Positions 3,283 through 64,000 of a DNA stretch of 64,000 nucleotides are shown here, one piece after another (positions within the stretch are counted from its first letter, which is position 1; each line of letters starts with the position of its first letter). The translations under genes and the position numbers were made by a program. Origin of the DNA: Eledone cirrhosa (Eukaryota); assembly GCA_964016885.1 (NCBI GenBank), contig OZ024742.1, positions 2,418,001 through 2,482,000 of the forward strand, read 5' to 3'. A model generated the notes under the pieces. The model was given only the letters and a program-made list of their open reading frames with translations. It was not told where the DNA came from and did not search any database.

Positions 3283-3769
3283 TTATATACATCTACACAC
3301 ATATATATAAAGAGAGAGAGAGAGAGAGGGATGGAATCAGAAGTAGAAGATGTTAGTATATACATACATATGTTTCCTATAAAACTGGTCATAAACAATG
3401 TCTTTGACACATGTTTATATCGACATATGTGTATGTAGCTATAATGTATAACACGCACACACTATAAATATATATATATATATATATAATACGTCCACAA
3501 ACACACATACACACGCGCACACACATATATAGCTATAAATATATACCTCATTTCTCTTTATAATATAAGTCTAGCTGTGAAAAGTGGTTGCTTTCATATG
3601 TTTCTCCAGTAATTAGTCATTCTCTACAATACATGCTCCCTTATCATTTGGCTTACGAAAAGAACTTATAGCAATCGCTGTTTATGTGATAAACAAACCA
3701 GAATTTAATCGAATTGGTGAGACTAATTTGCATGACGTGCATTCGTTTGGCAACGAAATTAATTAAAAA

Positions 3770-3806
3770 ATGGTTTCTGGTTTAGACACAAGGCCAACAA
3801 TTTTAG
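3770..3806 (+). CDS. Candidate exon 1 of the LC3-family gene (MVSGLDTRPTIL + G), tentative
   Basis: ATG in AAAAATGG context, 37 nt (phase 1, as exon 2 requires), strong donor AG|GTAAGA. Lacks the FKxRxxF motif and resembles a dispersed repeat also seen near 40835. Confidence 0.25.
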
Positions 3807-3894
3807 GTAAGATGATTGACTAATAAATATTTATGAGTTGTAGAGTTGTAGACTATATAATAGTGTAACAACTGATGTATGTATATAACACTAA

Positions 3895-4350
3895 ATAACA
3901 ACAGTACATGTAGCCATGACAACAGTACATGTAGCTATGGCAATAGTACATGTAGCTATGACAACAGTACATGTAGCTATGGCAATAGTACATGAAGCTA
4001 TGGCAACAGTACATGTAACTGTGACAGCAGTACATGTAGCTATGGCAATAATATATGTAACTGTGACAGCAGTACATGTAGCTATGGCAACAGTACATCT
4101 AGCTATGACAATAGTACATGTAGCTATGACAACACTACGTGTAGCTATGACAACACAACATAACAACACTACATGTTGCTACGACAGCACTACATAACAA
4201 CACTACATGTAGCTATGAAAACGCTACATAACAACACTACATGTATATATATATATGACAACGATACCTAACAGTACATGTAGTTATGACAACAGTACAT
4301 GTAACTATGACAACATTATCTAACAACTTTAATTGTAACTATGACAACTA
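3895..4350. repeat. 21-bp degenerate tandem repeat (ATGACAACAGTACATGTAGCT)n
   Basis: 7-aa periodicity in overlapping spurious ORFs; unit visible directly. Confidence 0.9.
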
Positions 4351-4396
4351 GATAAAGAGTTTAAAAGTCATATGTAAAAAGTTTAAATGCTTACAC

Positions 4397-4498
<102 letters not shown>

Positions 4499-5316
4499 GT
4501 GTGTGAGTGTAAATACATGTATGTATGTGTCCACGTATCTGTGTGTACATTTAACCTTTAGTTTATATCTTCCGTAACATAGCGGTTCAACAAATAGAGG
4601 TCGATAAAATAAGTACCAGACTTGAAAAATAAATTACTGGAGTCGATATGATTGTCTTGTCTACATCAGTAAAAGCTGATGCCCCAGCATGGTCACAGAC
4701 TAATCACTGAGATAAGTAAAAGATTATATGATGTAATGTAAGTAGTTATTGGTAGTATGATGACACGTGGTTTAGTGGTTAGAGTATGAAGCTGAGCCTT
4801 CCACAGACACATATACCCTTAATATAGTTCTAGAAGAGATTTAACCTGACATAGAGTCTGAAAAAGTTGATGATTTGAATCTTAAGTAGAGTTCATTGTT
4901 TGCAGCTGAGTGGACTGGAGGGACAATAAATTGTCTTGCCCAAGGACACAGTGCAGCGCCCTGTCCGGGAATCCGAACTCACAACCTTATGATCATTAAC
5001 TGGAATCCCTAAGCACTATGCTACTCCCCTTTAGGTAAAGTAATTAAAATTAATTAGATACAGTGGGCAGTTTTCACTGCTGTCTTGTTTACACAACTTC
5101 AGTGTGAACAGAAAAAGTCGTCTCAGCTGGAATATACTTTCAAATTTTATTACATTGTTTTCTGTCCACTCTGGAGTTTAAACACAAAACCTCTCAGACT
5201 ATCCAGTCATCTAATTAATTTTACTTGTTTAAACATGTAGTAACGCTGGTTAAAATCTATGTATAGATTTCTTTCACAGCACACAATATTCTCTCTATAT
5301 ATGTATATACAAAAAC

Positions 5317-5388
<72 letters not shown>

Positions 5389-5544
5389 GTATATAGATTT
5401 TGAGTATATGTTGGTTGTATACCAACACCTCAATATGCAGGCTGGAGCACTCGACGAAGTGCGCAGGCTGGTTTGGTTAATCCGGAGTAATGTAAAATAA
5501 AGTTAAATAAAAAGTCAAATGTTTAAAATTCAGCTTCGTTTATT

Positions 5545-5597
5545 ACTGCTATATATTTCAGTGACAGCCATCTTTGGCTGTGACCTCTTCAGGCAGT
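5545..5597 (-). ncRNA. Type I hammerhead ribozyme motif, family A
   Basis: Reverse strand reads ACTGC-CTGAAGA-GGTCACAGCCA AAGA TGGCTGTCACT-GAAA-TATA-TA-GCAGT. Confidence 0.7.
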
Positions 5598-6035
5598 CCG
5601 AATTAGTGTGGTATAGACAAGTACATATGTTGTTGAGGTATATAATATTGTCAATAGCAAACACAAACACTACAGGGAGCCTCACCCCAGAAAGAATTCT
5701 ATAGACTTCTGACTGAGGAATGCTCTCAGAACTGACCAATGGGAAGTTTGACACTTTTTTTGTTATTTTGTTCCTTTAATACCTTGTCCCTTCCACCACT
5801 TTATCAATTTTTTAAGCTAACTCCAACAATAACAACACTTAGAATGAGGAATGTTCTAACAACTGACCAAATAGAGGAGAAGAGGCCCTTTGACACTGAA
5901 ATTCGTTTGTTTGAATTCATATGATTCCAGTTCCTCAGTGAAATAACAACCCAACCAGGAACTGGGCATATCAGAGTATTGACAAAATTATACACCTCAA
6001 CAACATATGTACTTGTCTATACCACACTAATTCGG

Positions 6036-6090
6036 ACTGCCTGAAGAGGTCACAGCCAAAGATGGCTGTCACTGAAATATATATAGCAGT
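6036..6090 (+). ncRNA. Type I hammerhead ribozyme motif, family A
   Basis: ACTGC-CTGAAGA-stem II-GAAA-TATATA-TA-GCAGT; stems I and II pair, stem III is palindromic. Confidence 0.8.
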
Positions 6091-6143
6091 AATAAACGAA
6101 GCTAAATTTTAAACATTTGACTTTTTATTTAACTTTATTTTAC

Positions 6144-6174
<31 letters not shown>

Positions 6175-6246
6175 ATTGGTGTTGGATGCTTAAAGCGTCC
6201 GTATGCGGTAGGCCGTTTGAGTACTCGATGCTCTCATAGAGCAGAG

Positions 6247-6345
<99 letters not shown>

Positions 6346-7106
6346 ATACCTCATTTTTGTATTTGTTTTGCAAGATATTTTATCTGAAAATGTGTGTTGA
6401 AACAGATATTGTTATATTAGGAGGATTATGGTGTTAACAACAACAAACACATCTGTTGTGTTTCACTTCAACGTATTATAATTTCCCGATCAGTTAGTTC
6501 GATAACCGAGGTTGTTTATTTATTGATTGTAAAAACTCTTTCATCACACATTCTGTAAAACAGAAGAAAGCAGAGACACAAAATAACGACAAAAGTAGTG
6601 ACTGGAGATGGGGGAGGGGGGTCTAACATTGTCAGGTACTTCATGCCAGAGAAAGCAGGATAACCACAGCCTTATGAAGTTCTGGGCTTGAGACAGACTT
6701 CAGACCGTGTTTGTTTTAGAATCAAAAATTATAGAAGAAACAAGAAAGCAAGAACCGATCTAGATTGTTGAAGGATTCGAAACCTTAACAACATCGTGAA
6801 TATTTATTTTTAGAAACGTCATTTGTTTTTATCAGTTAATGACTTAATAGTCTGATTGAATCATTGATTAATCTACACTTAATTATCGAAAGAAAGTTTT
6901 AATGAAGGTCAACATTTCTGATATAATCAGCTCACACTCGATAAGAGACGGAGTCTAAGGTACCAAATTAGGATTGTAATAATTATTTTACCTTTATTGT
7001 TATTATTTTTACTATAGCGATTGTAAAATAACTGTTTCAAGGACACCTCTTCCTTCAATATTTTACCTCTCACCTTTTATGGGGTTTCTTTCTTTTCTAT
7101 ATTTGG

Positions 7107-25748: not shown

Positions 25749-25869
<121 letters not shown>

Positions 25870-25998
25870 GAAGTTATATTTAAATTGTTGGGATACTACA
25901 AGCAAATATTTTTATAACTGATATAAAGCACTCAACAAATTATTGGAGTAAAAATACGATATATTAACAAATGGAAACTATATTTATAAAACCATATT

Positions 25999-26063
25999 TA
26001 TTTCATTATACATATTTCAAGGATACCAAGTCAAATTATGGTGCGCTTTCATCAGATAAAATA
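25999..26063 (-). ncRNA. Type I hammerhead ribozyme motif, family B
   Basis: Same structure as 22020-22084; sense to the GIY-YIG ORF of this element. Confidence 0.8.
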
Positions 26064-27312
26064 TAATATAGATCAGTTTTATAAATAAATATTGACATAC
26101 CCTTAAAGAATGCAACCATTACTGTTGGAAGCTTCAGTTGAGGTCATAAAAGTTTTCAGATTTCTATCGCTGCAAAAGACGCTGGACATCAATCAAATCT
26201 GTAGGGATACATTCAGTCACAGTTAAAAGTGAGTGGCTACACACACACTCCACACTCACATACATCGGCTCGAGGTCAAAGAAAAATATACACACATCAA
26301 CACAGTATTAAACCCGTAGAATTAGCGTGGGTGGGTACACACACACTTTCACACACACCGAAGCGATTTCCGAGAAAAAAACAAATATAAGAATGTACCA
26401 ACACAGCACTCACCGAAAGTTGGTTCACAAAGCAACAGAAGCCATGTTGGTCAAATCTCAATTTGACGATGTAAATTGGTAATATTGGGTTAACCAACGC
26501 CCCACACATACACACACACGTGCGCGCGCGCGCGCAAGTATGTTCAGTGTTCTGCTATACGTGTATAGATCGAATTGTAACATCCATATCTTCAAGTGTG
26601 TGTTATGTTATGGTATATACACATCCGAATCGTCCAAAAAAGGGTATGTCTGGGTATATACACATCCATGTGAAGAGCAAGCAATCAGCTCATGTCGAAC
26701 TCCTTGTGTACCGCTGTCTCATTGAGAATCAGTGTCACAAAATCCGTGTGTGCAAGCAACTGCAATGTAGTCCGGCAAAGGGCTCCGTGTAGGGTTGGGT
26801 ATTGGGTAAATGCGTCCGCAAGTGCGATTTCCCGTCATATGGGCCAATGAGCTTTTAAGATAGTTGTTTGAGTGGTGGAGGTGTGTTATCCAACACAAGA
26901 GGTGAAGTAAGAAAACACAGGACAAGTAAAATCCAAAGGATGTGTGTAGGCCCATTAATGGTGTGTCAGTATTATTGTTCAATCCGTAGCAGTGAGTCCT
27001 CCATGGTTAGATGATCACGCATCAAAACCTGGTGTAGTGTTCAGTCGGTAGGGACGTGACAGTCGTAATTGTGGGAGCTCAATGCCTAAAGGAAACGGAT
27101 ACTATGTGTAGAGCTATGTATAGAGAGCATAATCAGTCCTAGCTAAGTGTGTAATCAATCTAACTATTTACTAGCTAGGTATTCTAAAAGAGAGCACTCA
27201 GCTGTGAGAAATCCGTGGAAACAGGCTGAGTATCATTTGCAAGTACGCAAACAATCTTATCCGTCTAACTACCTAAGTGTGTGACTGTCTGTTTATTGAG
27301 AGAACTCTATGG

Positions 27313-28185
27313 CTAAAGTAGAGAAGGAGGAGTTAGTGGTAGGTTACCTTCCAAAACTCCTGCGGAGGTTTTCGAGGTTCTATGTTGACAGTTGCTGAAA
27401 ACATCTGCTCTCCTATTAATTAATAGGGGGCCGCCTCTAATAATATTAAAAGTTTCAGCTATACATAAATTGCAGACGCCAGTGCTGCCGTTATAAGTTT
27501 GGACTGAGCGAACTAAGGACAAGGATAAGGAGTGCTCTATATCCTGATGTTTAAGCTTCCATACTAATTCCGAAAGTGCCGTGCTATTTTTTGTATCTAA
27601 TCTATTAAAGGTATGGCGGTTTTTATACCATCTATCCTTAAATTACGTGGCAGTTGCCCCAACATACCTAAAGGGTCTATCAGGAGTGGAGACCTTACAG
27701 TCGTAGACTATGTTTTTGGTAAGGCATTTCCCAGCCATGGGGAAGGTGGCGGTGCTTCTGCAGTTACATTTTTTTCTATCGATCTGGGTAGTTCCAGATG
27801 GACCACGGTACCTTTGGGGTCGGGTCTCATTTTCAGTCTGCTCTATGGGTAAATTCTCTGGGGTTGGGGAGACCCGACTCGCCTCACGTGTATGAGTCAG
27901 TTCCTCAATAGAGCTGCCATTGTTCCTGCCATGCCTAATTCCCTCATTGGCTGTCCTAAGTCTACTATAATTCATCTTAGCTATATTCTGAGCTATGTTA
28001 ATAGTTGTGGAGTAGGACAGCTTGATGGTATTTCTATTGAATATTTTATAATATCTGTGTGATCTAGGGAAGTATTTGTCTAAGTCCCCAAAGAAAAGCT
28101 TAGCTATACTAGTGGTCAGGACAGTGGAGTAATGGGGATTATACCACAGGACTTTTCTGGTCCGATGCCTCTTGTTCCTACTAAC
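27313..28185 (-). pseudogene. PLE polyprotein C-terminal relic with GIY-YIG endonuclease
   Basis: RKVLWYNPHYS...YYKIFNRNTIKLSYST; KCNCR...GKCLTKNIVYDCKV...YVGATAT*FKDRWY...STALSELVWKLK...CNLCIAE...NRRADVFSNCQHR; one in-frame TAA at 27643-27645. Confidence 0.88.
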
Positions 28186-28210
28186 TAGTTAGTAGGAACA
28201 AGAGGCATAT

Positions 28211-28291
28211 CGCTTTTACCGATGGTTTCGCCTCACAAAAGATTGGAAATCCAAGGGGTTTCCAATAGAAAGATCGGCTCTTCAGAAAGCG
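28211..28291 (-). ncRNA. Type I hammerhead ribozyme motif, family D, copy 1
   Basis: Reverse strand reads CGCTTT-CTGAAGA-GCC...TTGGAAA..TTTCCAA...GGC-GAAA-CCATCGG-TA-AAAGCG. Confidence 0.82.
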
Positions 28292-28703
28292 TTTTCCTTT
28301 ATATAGGACATATAGTCCCATAGCAGGCAAATATATTGCCTTCAGCCAGCTAGTGAAAGATCGAATGGGGTCGTAAACATGACCTACACGTGAACTGGTC
28401 GTTAGTAGAAGCGGGAATATTATAGACGTGTTGTTTGTCACACTACTAAAAAAAAAAAATAGCAGCTAGGTATACAACGTTTTTTTTCTCTACACATGGG
28501 AGAATATACATAAAATGAGATCAATATCCCCACAGGTACTAAGTACCCACGGAAATATACAGGGTGTCCATAATACAGTTGTTGTTCAATGGTATTAATT
28601 TGAGATACCAGAACTATAAAATTTAAATGAGCGGAACAAGCAAAATTTAAACAATCTTTCAAAATAAATTCAAAATACAATTTAAATATTTACTTATCCA
28701 TAT

Positions 28704-28784
28704 TGCTTTTATCGACAGTTTCGCCTCACAAAAGATTGGAAATCCAAGTGATTTCCAATGGAAAGATCAGCTCTTCAGAAAGCG
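28704..28784 (-). ncRNA. Type I hammerhead ribozyme motif, family D, copy 2 (direct repeat)
   Basis: Reverse strand reads CGCTTT-CTGAAGA-GCT...GGC-GAAA-CTGTCGA-TA-AAAGCA; stem III partly mismatched. Confidence 0.72.
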
Positions 28785-29916
28785 TTTTCCCTTACATAGG
28801 ACATATAGTCCCATAATACACATATATATATGTATATATATATATATTGTTATACTTGGGGAGGGTCATATTGTTGTAATAATATTGCCAGAAATAATAA
28901 CAGGACACACTCACTCTTTGTCTGGTTTTCGCTTCTGTGTGTATGTATTGTTCTTAGTGTTATATCATATGGCGATTAACAGAATGGGATCAAACACTAG
29001 CAACCGATGAATTGATGGTCATGTTTTGTGAAGAGATTTACTACAGCCAAAAAGAACAATCTCTACATATTTCTGGCATTTATAGTATTGAAAAACAAAC
29101 TTAAACTTCAAAGTGACCACAGAATTCCGAACAAATTTTTGGTGAGTTTTATTTTATGTTAAGGAAAATGATGGAATAAAGAAAAGCAGATCAACCGAGC
29201 TGGCATTTGAACATTTGAACTGATGATGGCAAAGAATATAATTTAATTAAAAAACAAAAAACACACACAACGCAGAAGTAAACCACATTTTAACCAAAAC
29301 TTTTCCCGTTAACCAAAGTGAAGTAAAAGAATATAATCTAAATTTAATAATAAAATCAAACAAAATAAAATAAAAAAGCAGATGTAAATTGCATTTAAAC
29401 CGAAAGTTTTGCAGTTAACCCACTGAAAATATGGACAACTCTATATTTCTTGTTTTAATATTTTCTATTATATTATTTCTGTTGCGAGATGTCTGAGATT
29501 TGAAATCCATTATGGAAGATTTAAAGCACATCTCGCAGAAACTTTTAAAGAATCAGAGGAATTAATGTCTTTTGCTGACGTCTGAAATGAACAAATTTCT
29601 TTGTTCCTTAAATCTAAAAAATTCAATTTTAAGATCTTTTGACTACAAATAATTTTATCTCTTGTTCTTCTTCCTTTCGTTTCCTTTTTCTTTTCTGTAT
29701 GTTGTCTTTGTGTGTGTGTCTGTTGGTGTGTTTGTGTTTATATGTGTCCATGTTTGTGTATGTGTGTCTTTTATGTCTTTGTGTGTATATGTGCGTTCGT
29801 ATTGTCTGTGTGTGTGTGTGCACGCACCTGTTAGTTTGTGCCTGTATTTGTGTTTGCCTATGATTGTGTGTGTTTGTTTGTGAGCGTGTATTTATACGTA
29901 TATGTGTTTTGTTTCT

Positions 29917-30141: not shown

Positions 30142-30409
30142 ACGACTGTTTGCAATGCATTAGCTGATGGCGTTCTTCAACGTCAGGAAGAAGACTAACT
30201 GGCGGTTTTGTCTGGGAATATTCTTTAAACCAATTCTTTGTCTCCAGAAGTAATTTATTTACACACGCTCACACGAGAGCCACTTGCTAAATTGGTCCTA
30301 AAATATCATTTATGCAGACCTTTCATAAATATTCCCTAAATTACGTTACACTCTCAATATATGGTTACATCAGAATGTTTTCTCTTCATAACATAATTAT
30401 TTTTTAAGT

Positions 30410-31310
30410 GACCAGAAATACGCCACATCCTGACCAGATATACGCCACATCCTGACCAGAAATACGCCACATCCTGACCAGATATACGCCACATCCTGAC
30501 CAGATATACGCCACATCCTGACCAGAAATACGCCACATTCTGACCAGAAATACGCCACATCCTGACCAGAAATACGCCACATCCTGACCAGATATACGCC
30601 ACATCCTGACCAGATATACGCCACATCCTGACCAGATATACGCCACATCCTGACCAGAAATACGCCACATCCTGACCAGATATACGCCACATCCTGACCA
30701 GATATACGCCACATCCTGACCAGATATACGCCACATCCTGACCAGATATACGCCACATTCTGACCAGAAATACGCCACATCCTGACCAGATATACGCCAC
30801 ATCCTGACCAGATATACGCCACATCCTGACCAGATATACGCCACATCCTGACCAGATATACGCCACATTCTGACCAGAAATACGCCACATCCTGACCAGA
30901 TATACGCCACATCCTGACCAGATATACGCCACATTCTGACCAGATATACGCCACATCATGACCAGATATACGCCACATCATGACCAGATATACGCCACAT
31001 TCTGACCAGATATACGCCACATTCTGACCAGATATACGCCCACATCCTGACCAGAAATATGCCACATCCTGACCAGAAATACGCCACATCCTGACCAGAA
31101 ATACGCCACATCCTGACCAGAAATACGCCACATCCTGACCAGAAATACGCCACATCCTGACCAGAAATACGCCACATCCTGACCAGAAATACGCCACATT
31201 CTGACCAGAAATACGCCACATCCTGACCAGAAATACGCCACATCCTGACCAGATATACGCCACATTCTGACCAGAAATACGCCACATGCTGACCAGAAAT
31301 ATGCCACATT
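30410..31310. repeat. 22-bp tandem minisatellite (ACCAGAWATACGCCACATCCTG)n, about 40 copies
   Basis: Unit visible directly; explains the repetitive ORFs at 30354-31422. Confidence 0.95.
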
Positions 31311-34334: not shown

Positions 34335-34408
34335 TCACCTGATGAGATCAGTGATAATCGATCATGGCTTCACAATCGATCTATCTCTTATTGAAACATG
34401 TGTCGTGA
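34335..34408 (+). ncRNA. Type I hammerhead ribozyme motif, family E (right arm)
   Basis: TCAC-CTGATGA-GAT...ATT-GAAA-CATGTG-TC-GTGA. Confidence 0.75.
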
Positions 34409-37942: not shown

Positions 37943-38000
37943 TTCGCCTGAAGAAGGGTTTATGCCCGAAACGCCCCCCCCCACTCTCAAGAGCGTGAAA
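37943..38000 (+). ncRNA. Partial or degenerate hammerhead motif in a TA-flanked insert (~37300-38055)
   Basis: CTGAAGA-AGGGTTTATGCCC-GAAA present; stem III replaced by a C-run. Confidence 0.4.
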
Positions 38001-46385: not shown

Positions 46386-46900
46386 ATACAGGTTGTCCCC
46401 ACAAAAATGTATACACACTTTGATTACCTGTACAGGCAATATATATATTAGAATGGTGTATACATTTTTAGGGACACCGGTATATATATATATATATGGT
46501 GTCCCGGAAAAATGGATACACACTTTGATTACCTGTACAGGCAATATATATATTAGAATGGTGTATACATTTTTAGGGACCCCGGTATATATATATGGTG
46601 TCCCCGAAAAATGTATACACACTTTGATTACCTGTACAGGCAATATATATATATTAGAATGGTGTATACATTTTTAGGGACCCCGGTATATATATATATG
46701 GTGTCCCCGAAAAATGTATACACACTTTGATTACCTGTACAGGCAATATATATATTAGAATGATGTATACATTTTTAGGGACCCCGGTATATATATATAT
46801 ATATATATATATATGGTGTCCCCGAAAAATGTATACACACTTTGATTACCTGTACAGGCAATATATATATTAGAATGGTGTATACATTTTTAGGGACCCA
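46386..46900 (+). repeat. Short outlying block of the 88-bp + (TA)n satellite
   Basis: Same unit as 53918-64000; first unit begins TA-CAGGTTGTCCCC. Confidence 0.9.
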
Positions 46901-48052
46901 GGGGGGAAGAAAAAAAATGGCTTCCCTTGTGCTTTCAACAAATTTATTTTCTTCACAAAATCCCAGAAGAATTTTTTTCCGGATTAGAAAAAAAATTTTT
47001 TCTCTTAAAAAAAATTATTTTATAAATTAAGTAGTTGGTTGTTGGTTAGGAGTTCTTGGTTAACGTAGGAGGTGTTGTTTCGTTTTTAGAACGACCTTTC
47101 ACGCTGAGGTGCGCTTGTCAAACTGATGTGTATGTGGTGTGTTGTTCTATATATAGGGATTTAACATGTCTGTGGTGTGGTGGGGTTTTTTTTCTCCCCC
47201 TTTAATAAGTGTCGGGGTGTAGGTGTGTATATATGTATATTTAGTTATGTATCTTTATGTGTGTATATGTATGTATATGTATGATGTATGTATGTGTATA
47301 TATATATGTATATATATACCCATGTGGAGGTATGAGTACATATTCGTGTGTACGTATGTGTATATGTGTTTTTATATGTGTCTTTATATGTTTTTATGTA
47401 TGTATGTGGATGTATATGTACATGGGTGTGTGATTGATGGTGTGTGCCTATATATTCCTACATATTCCCGTGTGTGTATGTACGTATATACGCACATATG
47501 TGTGTGTTGAACAAAGGACTAATTTTGGGATGGACGTAGAAAAATTCTTGAGAAAAAATAATTGTTTACAAGCCTGCAGGTGCGGTTTGCCTATGACCAT
47601 TCTCAACACAAAGGAATACTAAAAGCTTTTTCCCCTGAATAAAGGAATTTTTCGAGAATGACCGGGGCAGGCCGCACTTGTTACATTTCTCCCCACCCAA
47701 ACCCTACTCACCGTCTCAACTCATTACTGCTATTAACACTTTTTCAACACACCTATACCCTACACTTATTAAAGGGGGAGAAAAAAACCCCCACCACACC
47801 ACAGACATGTTAAATCCCTATATATAGAACAACACACCACATACACATCAGTTTGACAAGCGCACCTCAGCGTGAAAGGTCGTTCTAAAAACGAAACAAT
47901 ACCTCACCAACAACCAACAACTTAATTTATAAAATAATTTTTTTTAAGAAAAACATTTTTTCTAATCCGGAAAAAAATTCTTTTTGGATTTTGTGAAGAA
48001 AATAAATTTGTTGAAAGCACAAGTGAAGCCATTTTTTCTTCCCCCCCTGTCT
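46900..48052. mobile_element. Fold-back insertion with ~300-bp inverted arms, interrupting the satellite
   Basis: Arms ~46900-47225 and ~47755-48050. Confidence 0.75.
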
Positions 48053-48724: not shown

Positions 48725-49267
48725 TTTACTTACTTAAATTTTCACTCCAACTAATTAGTTTCTGCAATGGGATAAAGACAGTTACGTAATCCAACTGTCG
48801 AGAATTCATTGCGTCATCAGGGAGTCTATTCTCAGCTGAGTCTCCAGGCAATGCGCGGACACTGGCGGCTCATATAAAAATAATAATAATTCGGTAGATA
48901 GAACAGCTAGCGAGGACTGGATTCCATGTACTGAAATTCTCACTGCTTCTAGTCAAATGGCCGATTCTAAAGAATCAATCACGTGACACAGAGGCTAGTT
49001 AGACGGAATGGGATGGTAAGATGACTGACGCCTACTAACACCCCAAAAAATTTAGAAGTGGTTTTGGCAGGTTTGCTCGACAAATCAGTGATTTGGAGAT
49101 AAATATAGATAATTTGATATATCAACTAGCATAAGCGCACAGATGGACGTCCATGCCAGCAAATACACAGGTTATGTCATAGTACCTAGGTGGTTCAATG
49201 CAGGAGGAAGCAGAACAATAATATAAAAGACGTAAAATAAGAAAATATTTTATTTTCTTATTTTACG

Positions 49268-49322
<55 letters not shown>

Positions 49323-49350
49323 ATTAAAAGATGGTTAGATGAGTTCCATG

Positions 49351-49421
49351 TATTTTATTATGCGCATTTCAAAAACAAATATCATCATGCAATAACATTT
49401 GTGTTTTCATCAGATAAAATA
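49351..49421 (-). ncRNA. Type I hammerhead ribozyme motif, family C (inverted pLTR)
   Basis: Reverse complement of 52971-53041. Confidence 0.82.
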
Positions 49422-50329
49422 GGAAGACATGATATGAAGGTTAAAAACACTTGTGGATAGTGCAATTTTAAATCAACATATGAAAAGTAGTTTTAGATTG
49501 ATGTGTGATATTGGGGGGAAAAAATGTTTGAGGAGGGGGGGGAAAGGACGAAAAAGAGGAGGAGATGAGAGTAAAAAGTGGAGGGGGAGGAGTATAATGA
49601 GGAAGGATGGGATAGTAGGAGAGATGGGTGATAGAGAGAGAGAGAGATAGCTTTTATAACTGAGAAAAATATATTGTTTTACATAGAGAGGTTGAAAAAC
49701 CGTTGGAAGATAATGTATAAATTAAAAGAATTTGAAAATTAACGAAGAGAAAAATAATGTAAAGTTAAGGTTTGTATATTGAAGGGTTTAATAATATGGG
49801 CGATGAAACGAAATTGTTAATATGTATTAAGAATAATATTTAGGGTTTAATAATATGTGCGATGGAAAGAAAATGTTGATATGTATTATTAAAAAAAACA
49901 AAAGTAATGTAAGTAAGGATATATTGTGAGATGAGCATGAATAAGTTAGATGAAAGTGAGAAAAAAATAATGAATAGAGGATGAATAATCTAACGTCAAA
50001 AAAAAAATGTTTATGTTTACGAAGGATTTTTTTAAGGTGATATAAAGTAAGAATATATTGTATTGTGTAATAATTGTTTCAATGTTAGGCACAGTGAGAA
50101 AAGGTACAGATTATGGGTTAGAAATTAAAAGAAAAAGAAAAGAAAAGGAAAAGGAAGAAAGGGAAGTTATAAATAGGAGTGATATAGAATATAATAAATA
50201 ACTTTGAAATAAGGTAGAAAGATGGGTATATTTTTAAAGAAGTATATATATATACATATATATATGTGCCTTTGAGAAAAGGATTCTGAATTGATAAAGT
50301 TTAGGATATTAGCTGTATACTAAAATGTT

Positions 50330-52115
50330 TTAGTCCACTCTGACAAAACCAATAATTTATATGGTATTTCCAAGGATTATTATAACAACCTTATCCTAAA
50401 GGAACTTAGGAAAAAATATCCTAAAACCAACCATAATAATTTAGAATCCATAAACTTTGAAGCCTCTGAGATTATGTCAAAACTTGGCATCGGAAAAAAG
50501 ACCGAACCATTCCTCCCATGAACTCCGAGGATAAAACACAAGGATCACAAAAACAATTTTCGCACTAAACTACCTGTTAGATTATCGCCCCCTCTAAATC
50601 AGATCTGGGGATTGTTAGTAAAGCCATCTTGGATAGAATTATCCCACAGGTTCATTCTAATTGCTCTTCTTTGAACTTAAATTTATGGTTTGGTACTTCT
50701 GAAGTGATTGGCTGGTTCAACAAATTGAATAATAAAAACAAACTAAAATTTGTTCAATTTGATATTGCCAGCTACTATTCTTCTATTTCGCCTTCACTTC
50801 TCAACAATGCTCTATCTTTCGCATTTAAATATTCTGACATCACCACAGATGAACTTCACATCATTCTCACCTCACGTAAAACCATCCTTGAGTTCAACAA
50901 TGAATATTGGACCAGAGCTGATACCTCTAACAACTTCGACATCACAATGGGAGCATCCGATTCATCCCAATTGACAGATTTAATTGGTATCTTTATTTTG
51001 AACTCTTTGAGTCGGAAAATTCCTCAACTTCGCGGTGGAATTTATCGTGACGATGGACTCTTTACTATCTTAAATTGCAACATAGTTAACCTTAATATTA
51101 TTAAGAACAATATACGTAATCTCTTTAACCAACATAACCTAAAAATTGAATTTGATAACAGCATCAAACTAGCTAATTTCTTGGATGTATCTCTTAATCT
51201 TGACACTGGCCTATATTACCCTTACCATAAAAACAATGAGAACCTAAATTATGTTAATTTTAAATCTAACCATCCTACTAATATTAAGAATGCTATAGTT
51301 AGTAATATTGGAAAAAGAATATCTAACCTATCTTCTAATAAAAACATCTTCGATGCTAACGCCAATTACTATAATAACGCGCTTTCTAAAGCCGGCTATC
51401 CTGATAAAATCAAATATAATAAAGAAACAAATTCTAGAAGATCTTACAGTAGAATAATTAATCATGATCATTCCAATAACTTTAATAAAAGACCTAGATA
51501 CAAAAACATAATCTGGTATAATGCTCCTTTCTCCATCTCTATTAATAATAATATTCCTAAATTATTCTTTAGTGCCTTAAATAAATGCTTCCCTCCCTCA
51601 CATATCTATAGTAAAATATTTAACAAACACACTATAAAATTTTCCTATTCGACATCCTCCAACATTTCCAACATTATCTCTAAACACAACAAACAATAAA
51701 ATACTAAATACTAAATCTCTTCCTTCCAACACTGAATATCATAATAATAGTAATAGTACTCCCGACGTCACTGTAAACTCTAGGCTAATTTCTGCAAACC
51801 CAAATACAACGTCAAACACAACTTCGCTAAATGTTCTGAATCCCATTCTAAATCAAGAAACTATTATTCCTATCACAAATAACTTCTCAAATCCAATTCC
51901 TTCTATAGATAACACTAGGTCACTCGTTAATAATCTCTCTAATCGCAATTGCAATTGCCCTGCTAAACAGTTCTCTATCCAAGACTTGCAATCTCTGTCT
52001 AAATGAAAAAATTACCATTATATCTAGTTTAGATTCTATAATAAATAGACGCACTGACTTGTTTTCTATCTGCTTGCATAAATTCAACAGAACTTTCCAT
52101 AAAGTATACAGCTAA
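50330..52115 (+). pseudogene. PLE reverse transcriptase relic (longest open part 50629-51699); GIY-YIG core deleted
   Basis: KDHKNNF, PSKSDLGIVSKAILD, FDIASYYSSI, ITMGASDSSQLTDL, IYRDDGL, FLDVSLNL, YVNFKSNHP, IIWYNAPFS; then NCNC joined almost directly to TCNLCLNEK...CLH; stop 52113-52115. Confidence 0.92.
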
Positions 52116-52161
52116 TATCCTAAACTTTATCAATTCAGAATCCTTTTTCTCAAAGGCACAA

Positions 52162-52207
<46 letters not shown>

Positions 52208-52970
52208 TTCTTTAAAAATATACCCATCTTTCTACCTTATTTCAAAGTTATTTATTATATTCTATATCACTCCTATTTATAACTTCCCTTTCTTCCTTTT
52301 CCTTTTCTTTTCTTTTTCTTTTAATTTCTAACCCCTAATCTGTACCTCTTCTCACTGTGCCTAACATTGAAACAATTATTACACAATACAATATATTCTT
52401 ACTTTATATCACCTTAAAAAAATCCTTCGTAACCATAAACATTTTTTTTTGACGTTAGATTATTCATCCTCTATTCATTATTTTTTTCTCACTTTCATCT
52501 AACTTATTCATGCTCATCTCACAATATATCCTTACTTACATTACTTTTGTTTTTTTTTAATAATACATATAAACATTTTCTTTTCATCGCACATATTATT
52601 AAACCCTTCAATATACAAACCTTAACTTTACATTATTTTTCTCTTCGTTAATTTTCAAATTCTTTTAATTTATACATTATCTTCCAACGGTTTTTCAACC
52701 TCTCTATGTAAAACAATATATTTTTCTCAGTTATAAAAGCTATCTCTCTCTCTCTCTATCACCCATCTCTCCTACTATCCCATCCTTCCTCATTATACTC
52801 CTCCCCCTCCACTTTTTACTCTCATCTCCTCCACTTTTTCATCCTTTCCACCCCCCCTCCTCAAACATTTTTTTCCCCCAATATCACACATCAATCTAAA
52901 ACTACTTTTCATATGTTGATTTAAAACTGCACTATCCACAAGTGTTTTTAACCTTCATATCATGTCTTCC

Positions 52971-53041
52971 TATTTTATCTGATGAAAACACAAATGTTAT
53001 TGCATGATGATATTTGTTTTTGAAATGCGCATAATAAAATA
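52971..53041 (+). ncRNA. Type I hammerhead ribozyme motif, family C (3' pLTR)
   Basis: TATTTTAT-CTGATGA-AAACACAAAT...ATTTGTTTTT-GAAA-TGCGCA-TA-ATAAAATA; 8-bp stem I, palindromic ATGCGCAT stem III. Confidence 0.85.
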
Positions 53042-53067
53042 CATGGAACTCATTTAACCATCTTTTG

Positions 53068-53159
<92 letters not shown>

Positions 53160-53512: not shown

Positions 53513-53866
53513 ACACACACACACACACATATTTGTTGTGAAGGAGTCATTTCTCAGTCTTGGCGCAAAATCAATTTTTATTCACATGACCTCTACCGAC
53601 CAATCAAAATTGTTTTGACCACTGGAGCCACTTTTTTAATATAAAAACAGGTAGAATTTCCAAAACTAATCAGATCAGAGCAAACAACACGGACACTCTA
53701 TCTCAAAATTATTTTTGAAAAGCATTTAGAAATGCGCAACCGGTAAAAACTTAAAAACTTAAAACCACAACTGAATACTAACCCATACAATCACTAGTAC
53801 TCTTTTATTCCTAATTAAACCATTTTTCAACTGTGAACAATTTGTCAGCATTTTCTATTTCGTTTA

Positions 53867-53872
<6 letters not shown>
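53160..53872. mobile_element. Fold-back insertion in (TA)n with ~180-bp inverted arms around an (ACT)n/(CA)n spacer
   Basis: Arms ~53197-53366 and ~53705-53872. Confidence 0.7.
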
Positions 53873-53908
<36 letters not shown>

Positions 53909-55962
53909 TATATATATGGTGTCCCCGAAAAATGTATACACACATTGATTACCTGTACAGGCAATATATATATTAGAATAGTGTATACATTTTTATGGAC
54001 GCCGGTATATATATATATATGGTGTCCCGGAAAAATGTATACACCCTTTGATTACCTGTATAGGCAATATATATATTAGAATGGTGTATACATTTTTAGG
54101 GACCCCGGTATATAAATATATATATATATGCTGTCCCCGAAAAATGTATACACACTTTGATTTCCTGTACAAGCAATATATATATTAGAATGGTGTATAC
54201 ATTTTTAGGGACCCCGGTATATATATATATATATATGGTGTCCCGGAAAAATGTGTACACACTTTGATTACCTGTACAGGCAATATATATATTAAAATGG
54301 TATATACATTTTTAGGGACCCCGGTATATATATATATATGGTGTCCCCGAAAAATGTAAACACACTTTGATTACCTGTACAGGCAATATATATATTAGAA
54401 TGGTGTATACATTTTTAGGGACCCCAATATATATATATATGGTATCCCCGAAAAATGTATACACACTTTGATTACTTGTACAGGCAATATATATATTAGA
54501 ATGGTGTATACATTTTTAGGGACCCCGGTATATATATATGGTGTCCCCGAAAAATGTATACACACTTTGATTACCTGTATAGGCAATATATATATTAGAA
54601 TGGTGCATACATTTTTAGAGACCCCGGTATACATATATATATATATATATATGGTGTCCCCGAAAAATGTATAAACACCTTGATTACCTGTACAGGCAAT
54701 ATATATATTAGAATGGTGTATACATTTTTAGGGACACCGGTATATATATATGGTGTCCCCAAAAAATGTATACACACTTTGATTACCTGTACAGGCAATA
54801 TATATATTAGAATGGTGTATACATTTTTAGAGACCCCAGTATATATATATATGGTGTCCCGGAAAAATGTATACACACTTTGATTACCTGTACAGGCAAT
54901 ATATATATTAGAATGGTGTATACATTTTTAGGGACCCCGGTATATATATATAAATATATGGTGTCCCGGAAAAATGTATACGCACTTTGATTACCTGTAC
55001 AGGCAATATATATATTAGAATGGTGTATACATTTTTAGGGACCCCGGTATATATATATATATATATATATATATGGTGACCCGGAAAATGTATACACACT
55101 TTGATTATTTGTACAGGCAATATATATATTAGAATGGTGTATACATTTTTAGGGACCCCGGTATATATATATATGGTGTCCCCGAAAAATGTATAAACAC
55201 CTCGATTACCTGTATAGGCAATATATATATTAGAATGGTGTATACATTTTTAGGGACACCGGTATATATATATGGTGTCCCCAAAAAATGTATACACACT
55301 TTGATTACCTGTACAGGCAATATATATATTAGAATGGTGTATACATTTTTAGGGACCCCGGTATATATATATATATATATATATATATGGTGTCCCGGAA
55401 AAATGTATACACACTTTGATTACCTGTACAGGCAATATATATATTAGAATGGTGTATACATTTTTAGGGACCCCAGTATATATATATATGGTGTCCCGGA
55501 AAAATGTATACACACTTTGATTACCTGTACAGGCAATATATATATTAGAATGGTGTATACATTTTTAGGGACCCCGGTATATATATATATAAATATATGG
55601 TGTCCCGGAAAAATGTATACGCACTTTGATTACCTGTACAGGCAATATATATATTAGAATGGTGTATATATTTTTAGGGACCCCGGTATATATATATATA
55701 TATATATATATGGTGACCCGGAAAAATGTATACACACTTTGATTACCTGTACAGGCAATATATATATTAGAATGGTGTATACATTTTTAGGGACCCCGGT
55801 ATATATATATATATGGTGTCCCCGAAAAATGTATACACACTTTGATTACTTGTACAGGCAATATATATATTAGAATGGTGTATACATTTTTAGGGACCCC
55901 GGTATATATATATATGGTGTCCCCGAAAAATGTATAAACACTTTGATTACCTGTATAGGCAA

Positions 55963-56860
55963 TCTATATATATAAAACTGTGGTTGTCTGTCTGTCTATC
56001 GATTTTTGGCACACATCTCCTCTTAGAATCTCTCACGGAATTGCACCGAAATTGCTATACTTGTACATTGAGCCCTAGCGAAGACATCGGAAAAAAAAAA
56101 TTTCAAATTGACCCACCCAATGTGACGAAATCGAATATAATGTATCGATTTTTGAGCGTAAGTTATCAGTTATTTCCCTTTGTTCTGTTTACATTGAGCG
56201 TCTTACGTAAAAAATTACGCTGGCTTTCTCAGTTGTCGAGCCAGCAAAATATTGACCTGCAAAATTCATCAGTTCGAACACTAAGCTTCCGTTTTGCTTC
56301 ATTTCCATTTAAAAGCATTTTAAAACAATATTTTTACTTGAAAACAAGTCTATTTAAAGACTACGTAAAACAAGCAAATATTTCGTCGTTAGGCGTGCAG
56401 ACAGATAGTCGTGCAGAGAGGTGATATACGCGTGCAGACAGATAGTCGTGCAGAGAGGTGATATAGGCGTGCAGACAGACAGTCGTGCAGAGAGGTGATA
56501 TAGGCGTGCAGACAGACAGTCGTGCAGAGAGGTGATATAGGCGTGCAGACAGACATAACTGATAATTTGGTTACGCTAATGTTTTTCTCTGCGTTGCAGT
56601 GTTTACATTTTCGATCTTTGTTAATAAATAACCAGTGCAGTTTCTATCCCCAGCATCCTCTTTTGTTATAACATTCGGGTTATCACTATGTTTTCTTAAC
56701 TTCATAAGGCATATTGTTGGTTGAGGGAATATTAATCAAAAACACCACATGCAAGTCTGCACAGTAGACACTACAGTTTTTAAGCCAAGAAAGAAACTTA
56801 ACATTGTAACTTTAACACAGCTACTGAGCGACCCCGAGCAACGCCGGGCTTTACTGCTAG
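55963..56860 (+). mobile_element. Non-autonomous Helitron inserted in the satellite
   Basis: A|TC...CCCGAGCAACGCCGGG...CTAG|T with no TSD; internal 37-bp minisatellite. Confidence 0.88.
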
Positions 56861-57060
56861 TATATATATAAGAATGGTGTATACAGTTTTAGGGACCCCG
56901 GTATATATATATGGTGTCCCCGAAAAATGTATACACACTTTGATTACTTGTACAGGCAATATATATATTAGAATGGTGTATACATTTTTAGGGACCCCGG
57001 TATATATATATATGGTGTCCCCGAAAAATGTATAAACACTTTGATTACCTGTATAGGCAA

Positions 57061-57885
57061 TCTATATATATAAAACTGTCGTTGTCTGTCTGTCTATCGA
57101 TTTTTGGCACACATCTCCTCTTAGAATCTCTCACGGAATTGCACCGAAATTGCTATACTTGTACATTGAGCCCTAGCGAAGACATCGGAAAAAAAAAATT
57201 TCAAATTGACCCACCCTATGTGACGAAATCGAATATAATGTATCGATTTTTGAGCGTAAGTTATCAGTTATTTCCCTTTGTTCTGTTTACATTGAGCGTC
57301 TTACGTAAAAAATTACGCTGGCTTTCTCAGTTGTCGAGCCAGCAAAATATTGACCTGCAAAATTCATCAGTTCGAACACTAAACTTCCGTTTTGCTTCAT
57401 TTCCATTTAAAAGCATTTTAAAACAATATTTTTTACTTGAAAACAAGTCTATTTAAAGACTACGTAAAACAAGCAAATATTTCGTCGTTAGGCGTGCAGA
57501 CAGACAGTCGTGCAGAGAGGTGATATAGGCGTGCAGACAGACAGTCGTGCAGAGAGGTGATATAGGCGTGCAGACAGACATAACTGATAATTTGGTTACG
57601 CTAATGTTTTTCTCTGCGTTGCAGTGTTTACATTTTCGATCTTAGTTAATAAATAACCAGTGCAGATTCTATCCCCAGCATCCTCTTTTGTTATAACATT
57701 CGGGTTATCGTTATGTTTTCTTAACTTCATAAGGCATATTGTTGGTTGAAGGAATATTAATCAAAAACACCACATGCAAGTCTGCACAGTAGACACTACA
57801 GTTTTTAAGCCAAGAAAGAAACTTAACATTGTAACTTTAACACAGCTACTGAGCGACCCCGAGCAACGCCGGGCTTTACTGCTAG
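57061..57885 (+). mobile_element. Second Helitron copy in the satellite
   Basis: Same termini and same A|T site in the unit as 55963-56860; two fewer 37-bp repeats. Confidence 0.88.
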
Positions 57886-58775
57886 TATATATATAAGAAT
57901 GGTGTATACAGTTTTAGGGACACCGGTATATATATATGGTGTCCCCGAAAAATGTATACACACTTTGATTACCTGTATAGGCAATATATATATTAGAATG
58001 GTGTATACATTTTTAGGGACCCCGGTATACATATATATATATATATATATGGTATCCCCGAAAAATGTATACACACTTTGATTATTTGTACAGGCAATAT
58101 ATATATTAGAATGGTGTATACATTTTTAGGGACCCCGGTATATATATATATATGGTGTCCCCGAAAAATGTATACGCACTTTGATTACCTGTACAGGCAA
58201 TATATATATATTAGAATGTTGTATACATTTTTAGGGACCCCGGTATATATATATATATATATGGTGTCCCGGAAAAATGTATACGCACTTTGATTACCTG
58301 TACAGGCAATATATATATTAGAATGGTGTATACATTTTTAGGGACCCCGGTATACAGATATATATATATGGTGTCCTGGAAAAAATGTATACACACTTTG
58401 ATTACCTATAAAGGCAATATATATATTAGAATGGTGTATACATTTTTAGGGAGCCCGGTATATATATATAAATATATGGTGTCCCGGAAAAATGTATACA
58501 CACTTTGATTACCTGTACAGGCAATATATATATTAGAATGGTGTGTACATTTTTAGGGACCCTGGTATATATATATATATATATATATATATGGTGTCCC
58601 GGAAAAATGTATACACACTTTGATTACCTGTACAGGCAATATATATATTAGAATGGTGTATACATTTTTACGGACCCGGGTATATATATATGGTGTCCCC
58701 GAAAAATGTATACACACTTGATTACCTGTACAGGCAATATATATATTAGAATAGTGTATACATTTTTAGGGACCC

Positions 58776-58808
<33 letters not shown>

Positions 58809-58892
58809 TGTCCTGGAAAAATGTATACACACTTTGATTACCTGTACAGGCAATATATATATTAGAATGGTGGATACATTTTTAGGGACCCC

Positions 58893-58935
<43 letters not shown>

Positions 58936-60457
58936 TGTCCCAGAAAAATGTATACACACTTTGATTACCTGTACAGGCAATATATATATTAGAATGGTGT
59001 ATACATTTTTAGGGACCCCGGTATATATGTATATATGGTGTCCCGGAAAAATGTATACACACTATGAATACCTGTACAGGCTACATATATATTAGAATGG
59101 TGTATACATTTTTAAGGCCCCGGTATATATATATGGTGCCCCCAAAAAATGTATACACACTTTGATTACCTGTACAGGCAATATATATACTAGAATGGTG
59201 TATACATTTTTAGGGACCCCGGTATAAATTTATAAATATATATATGGTGTCCCGCAAAAATGTATAGACACTTTGATTACCTGTACAGGCAATATATATA
59301 TTAGAATGGTGTATACATTTTTAGGGACTCCGGTATACATATATATATATATATATATGGTATGCCGGAAAAATGTATACACACTTTGATTACTTGTACA
59401 GGCAATATATATATTAGAATGGTGTATACATTTTTAGGGACCCCGGTATATATATATATCGTGTCCCCGAAAAATGTATAAACACTTTGATTACCTGTAT
59501 AGGCAATATATATATTAGAATGGTGTATACATTTTTAGGGACCCCGGTATATATATATATCGTGTCCCCGAAAAATGTATAAACACTTTGATTACCTGTA
59601 TAGGCAATATATATATTAGAATGGTGTATACATTTTTAGGTACCCCGGTATAATATATGGTGTCCCCGAAAAATGTATACACACTTTGATTTCCTGTACA
59701 GGCAATATATATATTAGAATGGTGTATACATTTTTACGGACCCCAGTATATATATATGGTGTCCCCGAAAAATGTATACACACTTTGATTACCTGTACAG
59801 GCAATATATATATTAGAATGGTGTATACATTTTTACCCCGGTATATATATATGGTGTCCCGGAAAAATATATACACACTTTGATTACTTGTACAGGCAAT
59901 ATATATATTAGAATGGTGTATACATTTTTAGGGACACCAGTATATATATATGGTGTCCCCGAATAATGTATACACACTTTGATTACCTGTACAGGCAATA
60001 TCTATATTAGTATGGTGTATACATTTTTAGGGACACCGGTATATATATATGGTGTCCCCGAAAAATGTATACACACTTTGATTACCTGTACAGGCAATAT
60101 ATATATTAGAATGGTGTATACATTTTTAGGGACCCCGGTATATATATATATAAATATATGGTGTCCCGGAAAAATGCATACACACTTTGATTACCTGTAC
60201 AGGCAATATATATATTAGAATGGTGTATACATTTTTAGGGACCCCGGTATATATATATATATATATATATGGTGTCCCGGAAAAATATATACGCACTTTG
60301 ATTACCTGTACAGGCAATATATATATTAGAATGGTGTATACATTTTTAGGGACCCCGGTATATATATATATGGTGTCCCCGAAAAATGTATACACACTTT
60401 GATTACCTGTACAGGCAATATATATATTAGAATGTTGTATACATGTTTAGGGACCCC

Positions 60458-60494
<37 letters not shown>

Positions 60495-60896
60495 TGTCCC
60501 GGACAAATGTATACGCACTTTGATTACCTGTACAGGCAATATATATATTAGAATGGTGTATACATTTTTAGGGACCCCGGTATATATATATATATAGGGT
60601 GTCCCGGAAAAATGTATACCCACTTTGATTACCTGTACAGGCAATATATATATTAGAATGGTGTATACATTTTTAGGGCCCCGGTATACAGATATATATA
60701 TATGGTGTCCCCCCAAAATGTATACACACTTTGATTACCTGTACAGGCAATATATATATTAGAATGGTGTATACATTTTTAGGGAGCCCGGTATATATAT
60801 ATAAATATATGGTGTCCCGGAAAAATGTATACACACTTTGATTACCTGTACAGGCAATATATATATTAGAATGGTGTATACATTTTTAGGGACCCT

Positions 60897-60929
<33 letters not shown>

Positions 60930-63900: not shown

Positions 63901-64000
63901 AAACACTTTGATTACCTGTATAGACAATATATATATTAGAATGGTGTATACATTTTTAGGGACCCCGGTATATATATATCGTGTCCCCGAAAAATGTATA

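Follow-up and report, generated by a model that had tools for sequence, protein, structure and literature searches.

The segment at 28207-28815 of the window (the whole stretch of 64,000 nucleotides analysed here) is best explained as a decayed copy, 1.24 units long, of a dispersed non-coding superfamily of non-LTR retrozymes. Its members would likely be self-cleaved, circularised and copied into (TA)n microsatellites by a Penelope-like element (PLE) acting in trans, and we give this reading a probability of about 0.7. Copies of the superfamily are dispersed, keep a tandem order, have covarying stems and no conserved ORF, stop at two 3' ends, sit in (TA)n, and are truncated and inverted. Cleavage, ligation and priming in trans by a PLE reverse transcriptase and endonuclease (RT/EN) are suggested by analogy with the PLE Poseidon as described in PMC11167929. 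We infer the partner PLE from the integration footprints only, and it would probably be of the Neptune type.

The copy in the window and its PLE neighbour

Two direct repeats, at 28700-28815 and 28207-28322, are identical at 107 of 117 nt with an offset of 493, and they are the sole matches to the unit within the window. The preliminary description had recognised these repeats, which are real, but set one end a base too far, at 28323 instead of 28322. It had also placed a minus-strand hammerhead in each, and the core motif of a type I hammerhead is indeed present in both copies: stem I (GCUUU/AAAGC), CUGAAGA, a long stem II closed by G10.1-C11.1, GAAA, a short stem III and NUH, with C3 at 28778 and 28285. 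Numbering the monomer on the minus strand from m1 = 28815, with the cut after m106, the copy at 28207..28815 runs through m1-493 and then m1-117; it is 5'-truncated and devoid of the family 3' end. The predicted cleavage sites are 28710|28709 (AUA) in the upstream hammerhead repeat (28700..28815, minus strand) and 28217|28216 (GUA) in the downstream one (28207..28322, minus strand). They delimit a predicted non-coding monomer (28217..28709, minus strand) of 493 nt and 35% GC, which is better folded than 100/100 shuffles (z -3.84). The claim that these 493 nt hold no protein-coding region is borne out: the longest sense ATG frame of the unit read as a circle has 51 aa (26 aa in lineage C and 15 aa in lineage D, see below) and none is conserved.

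Searches of the window with Rfam gave no hammerhead match at the gathering threshold, and at E<=10 weak matches of miRNA or snoRNA type alone. MFE folding of the window copies did not yield the hammerhead fold, and their 91-nt cores were not significant (z ~ -1.2). Because Rfam is silent and the MFE of the cores is not significant, we identified the hammerheads from their motif and from covariation.

The two hammerheads have decayed to different degrees. In the upstream one, the core and the strands of a predicted pseudoknot (28791-28786 with 28764-28760) are intact, and stem III is broken by C15.2.A16.2, both in the single hammerhead and in the dimer predicted to cut at 28710. In the downstream one, the core and stems I-III are intact and one pseudoknot pair is now G.U. 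The stem III duplex of the window pair reaches -3.2 kcal/mol, where an intact copy gives -11.3. The cuts at 28710/28709 and 28217/28216 thus fall where the preliminary description had put them, but the release of a 493-mer from this copy is unlikely since the upstream stem III is broken; the upstream core might yet serve the site at 28217. The window copy is a decayed fossil, ~3% diverged, with likely cleavage at most at 28217. With its upstream stem III broken, it does not have the two consecutive complete hammerheads that the rule of Li et al. for 'active' copies asks for, as worded in bioRxiv 10.64898/2026.07.22.740005. Given this decay, a failed in vitro cleavage of the window copy would leave the reading of the family unrefuted.

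A 5'-truncated Neptune-like PLE lies next to the copy on the minus strand (26130..28187); it comprises the linker, an endonuclease remnant and the 3' UTR, and is without its own hammerhead-bearing end. The remnant (27370-28185, minus strand), which has an in-frame stop near 27640, we take to be of the GIY-YIG type from its motifs, and the element is presumably a Neptune, from its linker zinc-finger motif. A further lead to GIY-YIG comes from Atlas, where 22% of the members of a look-alike cluster (score 0.95) carry PF01541, and the linker zinc-finger motif figures in the description of the Neptune clade in PMC8557442. Pfam gave no match in the ORF pieces of the window or in the frames of two loci of the genome (L063 and L064). 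Longer copies of this Neptune-like family have an RT frame upstream. A second such family is represented by an RT and linker fragment at 50327-51690 of the window (plus strand), 50-55% identical to the first and enclosed by long inverted repeats (~49270-53120).

The alternative first proposed for the unit, a tandem pLTR of this neighbouring PLE, does not hold. The Neptune-like family has a different hammerhead, ~1.1-1.4 kb after the endonuclease, and ends in (TA)n, with a second, longer end; the hammerhead of its pLTR is represented in the window at 34339 and 34164. The unit was found beside this family in none of 29 other loci and none of eight 10-kb stretches. Since the family has its own hammerhead and the unit is absent from its other copies, we conclude that the adjacent PLE has a pLTR other than this unit. 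A homology between the two was rejected (score 30, shuffle mean 37), and a weak match of m113-168 to L143 and L147 was judged to be AT-rich chance. Neither nhmmer on 37 PLE loci nor the sampled PLE 3' regions provided an autonomous PLE with a homologous pLTR.

A dispersed superfamily and the ends of its copies

We searched the host genome (3.0 Gb, rich in TA microsatellites) with the unit and obtained 3130 first-look candidates, which are not copy numbers and of which the best 40 were scored. Three genome searches were pooled into 58 non-redundant loci of lineages A and B; the choice of loci by similarity over-represents intact copies, and three locus queries, including one A/B query and the lineage D query, favoured copies ending at m201. 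The sequences make the unit a member of a dispersed non-coding superfamily with monomers of ~480-490 nt and at least six lineages, which likely counts thousands of copies. Monomers (478-493 nt, 35-36% GC) occur on many contigs, head to tail and with no LTR-internal-LTR layout. All 58 A/B loci keep the monomer order and none runs out into a common ORF or coding flank. Of 70 hammerheads in these similarity-chosen loci, where intact ones are over-counted, 55 retain the core and 36 every stem, and in 56 stem III has the near-palindromic sequence ACCGUCGGU. The earlier retrozyme reading therefore stands, as copies are dispersed, tandem and non-coding.

Sampling of 100 fixed 10-kb stretches (1.0 Mb, mostly on large contigs) revealed two further lineages and one fragment. 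Lineage C is 77% identical to the unit and has a monomer of 478 nt. Lineage D has a monomer of 485 nt, a stem III that is a perfect palindrome (ACUGAUCAGU), and copies that are 99-100% identical across chromosomes (L219-L252). Its arrays reach 3971 bp, or 8.2 units, and the 8-unit head-to-tail arrays are without ORF (e.g., L249, G000:C3:111824550-111828529). The genome search for multimeric arrays suggested in the preliminary description thus did find multimers, in this sister lineage. Lineage D arrays contain the two consecutive complete hammerheads of Li et al., and the lineage is likely to be recently or currently mobile. Lineages E and G are more distant; nhmmer shows their homology, and they repeat in tandem with a period of about 480. 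Families H-K are also tandem and have the same ribozyme architecture, with a period of 655 in J. Three contig sets (one sample, of unspecified kind) hold the same repeat families. In L013 and L093 the unit is interrupted near m213-222 by one and the same ~180-bp repeat, which elsewhere occupies AT-rich sites. Arrays that repeat in tandem at 37 bp, 22 bp and ~107 bp occupy positions 1-1650, 30400-31000, 46400-47000 and 53800-64000 of the window.

The 3' ends of the copies concentrate at two sites. Of the 58 A/B loci, 40 stop at m195-201, 36 of them passing directly into TA; seven stop at m312, all into TA; and 11 stop elsewhere. In the window, the major site corresponds to 28610..28620 (minus strand), ~95 nt beyond the cleavage site, and is joined to (TA)n in other copies; the minor one corresponds to 28500..28510 (minus strand), ~205 nt beyond it. 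Both are putative starts of reverse transcription. When the query lacked the TA end, 21 of 29 other loci still stopped at the two sites. The same two sites terminate 29 of 30 lineage C loci, 15 of which have inverted pieces, and all 31 lineage D loci, which end into TA (the query was biased to such an end). Inverted pieces were found in 14 of the 58 A/B loci, whose 5' junctions consist of TA (31), an inverted copy (12) or something else (15). Two fixed 3' ends, a (TA)n microsatellite target, 5' truncation and inverted 5' copies are features of PLE integration, and in combination they read as its signature. The Neptune-like copies have the same (TA)n target and likewise two 3' ends, and Poseidon is described as using two internal RT start sites with extension of both strands (PMC11167929). 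Since cDNA synthesis begins past the cleavage site and runs across it, the template must be a circle or an uncleaved multimer and cannot be a cut linear monomer. We also considered targeted or nested insertion of the unit beside PLE ORFs; PLE coding matches flank 6 of 57 other A/B loci and 23 of 300 sampled 3.3-kb tiles, which is no clear enrichment.

Hammerheads with a predicted pseudoknot

We analysed covariation in an alignment of lineages A-D (30 rows, 29 distinct). In this set 91.8% of cells are paired, two-sided changes amount to 75 cells against 21.6 in shuffles, and a slid model pairs at most 53%, all figures being inflated by the relatedness of the sequences. Compensatory changes extend through the ribozyme and other hairpins. 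In most copies of lineage C (L149-L178), the core-proximal pair of stem II is A10.1.G11.1 and not G-C, above a covarying helix; this is a conserved non-canonical hammerhead variant.

In stem II, an internal loop (5x5) separates a lower helix of 7 bp from an upper one of 11 bp. The 5' strand of this loop can pair with a tract immediately 5' of stem I, which gives a predicted pseudoknot of 5-8 bp. This helix has no two-sided change within A-D and covaries between lineages: its strands are GGAAA/UUUCC in A-C, GGAAAA/UUUUCC in D, UGAAAAGA/UCUUUUCA in E and GAGAAA/UUUCUC in G, and further families have GAGAA/UUCUC, GAGCG/CGCUC, UUGAGUU/AACUCAA and CGAGUUU/AAACUCG. Pairing of 5-8 bp with the family's own flank occurs in 10 of 18 families with a long stem II, against 56 of 306 cross pairs, and none of 20000 permutations reached the observed pairing sum, in a test whose windows were set after the data had been seen and in which several families are related. 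By letter shuffling, 4 of the 10 pairing families are individually below 0.05, with lineage A at 0.31. The hammerhead of the Neptune pLTR is without the pseudoknot helix (4 bp, chance level).

Pseudoknots have been predicted in ~40% of hammerheads, of all three types, and fast cleavage requires the helix in the type II example tested, according to the description in PMC3088659 (Perreault et al. 2011). The superfamily hammerheads fit this pseudoknot-stabilised class, as judged from their sequences: a covarying Watson-Crick helix would join the flank of stem I to stem II, just as the known class has a helix of at least 4 bp between the stem I and stem II regions. The description of that class sets our case apart in its geometry, in which the 5' flank pairs with the 5' strand of an internal loop located 6-10 nt up stem II, and in its occurrence in animal retrozymes. 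Between UUUCC/CUUUU and GGAAA a third-strand (ENE-like) triple helix, in which a U-rich internal loop would clamp an A-rich strand, would fit in A-D and is a speculative option; the opposite strands are A-rich in lineages I-K, where they may only keep the internal loop open.

Similar structures were observed elsewhere. The same flank-to-stem II pseudoknot geometry, with different sequences, is found in tandem families at 48820 of the window (minus strand) and at L143:9220, L067:5260, L250:643, L256:1114 and L279:8489. Hammerhead-like motifs of several families, often in inverted pairs, lie in the window at 5592, 6041, 22076, 23151, 25276, 26055, 34164 and 34339, with further ones at 37948, 38524, 41732, 41822, 48253, 49413 and 52979. 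A descriptor scan of 600 kb of sampled genome gave 51 such motifs.

Proposed mobilisation of the superfamily, and the composite in the window

In the preferred reading, read-through transcripts of tandem copies would be cut at each hammerhead. The pseudoknot, in which the internal loop of stem II pairs with the 5' flank of stem I, would brace the ribozyme fold, as would the palindromic stem III, which would be able to dimerise. Ligation would then close the monomers into circles. After nicking (TA)n, the PLE enzyme would begin reverse transcription at either internal AU-rich site, 95 or 205 nt beyond the cleavage point, and cross the ribozyme junction in 1-8 rounds. In the window, the copy is joined head to tail with a piece of a different Neptune-like family and with a third hammerhead repeat.

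The nature of the template separates this scenario from its closest rival, in which the family and the PLE helper are the same but no circle is made: long uncleaved tandem transcripts would be reverse transcribed from the internal starts, and the hammerhead would mainly trim or be off in the RNP. Fixed 3' ends and random 5' ends fit a circle or a linear multimer alike, and Poseidon insertion in vitro is described as not requiring hammerhead cleavage (PMC11167929). Likeness within loci and private variants lead us to favour circles. Repeats within one locus resemble each other more than the between-locus median (mean 0.938 vs 0.891, 30 forward pairs), are closer within the locus in 50 of 61 pairs in lineage C, and have private variants common to both repeats in L225 and L226 and to three repeats in L250. 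Against the circle of a single monomer, variants are inhomogeneous in the young lineage D arrays L249 (294G in four of seven full repeats, oriented 3349-6741) and L250 (59C in two of three); such mosaics speak for uncleaved multimers, and may record either multimeric templates or later unequal exchange. Long linear templates account less well for the fact that most copies have 1-2 units and yet tandem units are regenerated in every lineage, or for the private variants. Circles predominate in mussel and other animal retrozymes as described in PMC7229834, and among Xenopus retrozyme dimers one of nine is reported as cleaved in vitro (bioRxiv 10.64898/2026.07.22.740005). We regard transcription without circles as unlikely. 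The unit could instead be the pseudo-LTR of an autonomous PLE outside our sample, its copies being solo or tandem pLTRs; the ends, the inversions and the two-site 'tail' resemble PLE termini, and a divergent parent could have escaped because the best 40 candidates were scored per search. Yet the sequence always continues in monomer order in 119 loci of A-D, PLE coding lies in the flanks of 6/57 other A/B loci vs 23/300 tiles, the junctions read in L124, L093 and L026 have TA between the unit and the ORF, and the 8-unit arrays hold no ORF, all of which make this origin very improbable. The last explanation, a satellite or minisatellite amplified at the DNA level with a vestigial hammerhead, would account for some multimers and, by unequal exchange, for the array mosaics, but it is hard to reconcile with dispersal on many chromosomes, fixed 3' ends, new TA targets, 5' inversions and compensatory changes through the ribozyme and other hairpins, and we give it hardly any credence.

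The neighbours of the window copy raise a separate question. The minus strand carries, one after another, (TA)n, m1-493 and m1-117 of the unit, ATG, a fold-back, the Neptune fragment, AGCT, a third repeat and (TA)n. The 5' junction is a (TA)n-like tract at 28820..28847, and the stretch past it looks by eye like the 3' end of another PLE family. The fold-back is a perfect 22+22-bp palindrome of 44 bp (28165..28208) at the 5' truncation point of the PLE, with ATG microhomology to the retrozyme. The third hammerhead repeat (25866..26133, minus strand, C3 at 26055) is 5'-truncated, joined to the PLE at an AGCT microhomology (26130), and ends in (TA)n. Positions m118-201 of the second unit are absent from the window. 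The unit and the PLE with its truncated 5' end do lie on the same strand, as first described, but the palindrome separates the unit from the PLE ORF. Co-integration by template jumping is plausible from the 3- and 4-nt microhomologies, the common orientation and the similar ages; nested insertion followed by deletion fits equally well. We give roughly even odds to a single integration event in which the PLE reverse transcriptase switched template twice. In favour of this, the three pieces share a strand and no TA separates them; wherever two of them meet, the upstream one is missing its 3' end and the downstream one its 5' part; ATG and AGCT microhomologies are present, with the fold-back at the switch point; and divergence is similar: 49/1479 (3.3%) from the family majority for the Neptune piece, 20/598 (3.3%) for the unit and 3.5-5% from the nearest copies for the third repeat. 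A second direct fusion is found in L022 (oriented 1944 onward), where the unit passes, with no TA in between, into a J-type hammerhead repeat that is 5'-truncated and has the same orientation, which may be another template-switch chimera. Three separate inserts in a TA hotspot, followed by microhomology-mediated deletions of the missing ends, have somewhat less than an even chance. A single deletion could have removed the Neptune 3' end and the rest of the retrozyme it had entered, equal ages do not discriminate between the two since the families were active at the same time, such fusions occur in only 2 of 58 loci, and the junction is 11 nt beyond the cleavage site and not at it. The contig sets provided no listed piece spanning the composite junctions, and L089, considered as a further chimera, has a TA spacer.

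The window feature is a non-LTR retrozyme, an element of known kind, in a decayed copy fused to a different PLE. Such retrozymes are established in metazoans (coral, mussel and axolotl; Cervera and de la Pena 2020, PMC7229834), and PLEs, whose own hammerheads have been described (PMC4209133), have been proposed to mobilise them (PMC7229834; bioRxiv 10.64898/2026.07.22.740005). The superfamily shares with the metazoan elements, as PMC7229834 describes them, a type I hammerhead in each low-GC tandem unit, no ORF, dimers to multimers, and coexisting PLEs. It differs from that description in its longer monomers (478-493 nt, and 655 in lineage J, instead of ~170-400 nt), in the extended stem II with internal loop and covarying pseudoknot instead of the loop 1-loop 2 contact, and in fixed internal 3' ends with (TA)n targeting; cleavage and circles are demonstrated there and predicted from sequence here. 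Vertebrate non-LTR retrozymes have been presented as non-autonomous PLE derivatives (Li, Clavereau, Pollet 2026, bioRxiv 10.64898/2026.07.22.740005), with tandem units of 51-972 bp, a range that includes ours, and a proposed dependence on PLEs; as given there, the link is drawn from co-occurrence and pLTR homology, whereas here it is drawn from the integration footprint, with no homologous pLTR found. PLE pseudo-LTRs with minimal hammerheads, in the descriptions of PMC4209133, PMC11167929 and PMC8557442, also have two 3' ends, AT-rich or microsatellite targets, 5' truncation, inverted 5' copies and a palindromic stem III, but they accompany an RT-EN ORF, which our unit lacks, and their two ends are 30-40 bp apart instead of ~110 nt. 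What sets this variant apart is a covarying pseudoknot between flank and internal loop, a pair of internal start sites combined with TA targeting, and a sister lineage that is very young. A literature search over article records and the papers cited here gave no description of the superfamily or of such a pseudoknot geometry in animal retrozymes; the supplement of PMC7229834 may include ribozymes of cephalopods or similar ones.

The copy in the window is one decayed fossil among likely thousands, and its relatives bear on the route by which animal retrozymes return to DNA, for which PLEs have so far been proposed from co-occurrence and pLTR similarity. Copies of the superfamily bear the footprint of a PLE (two fixed internal starts, a common TA target and tail-out inversions), which excludes the cut linear monomer as template. 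The covarying pseudoknot offers a testable answer to how invertebrate retrozyme hammerheads might be stabilised without the usual loop 1-loop 2 nucleotides, whose absence has been noted for mussel. A broader possibility, which we put forward tentatively, is a still-mobile radiation of long retrozymes in which the pseudoknot, perhaps capped by a triple helix, would replace the loop-loop contact and make fast cutters, and in which two-start circles would be rolled into (TA)n by a Neptune RT that jumps between retrozyme and PLE RNAs, making multi-family chimeras. Lineage D, with its 99-100% identical copies, provides intact substrates for cleavage, circle and reverse-transcription assays; if the radiation is indeed mobile, it would offer the first direct substrate on which to reconstitute the mobilisation of retrozymes by PLEs.
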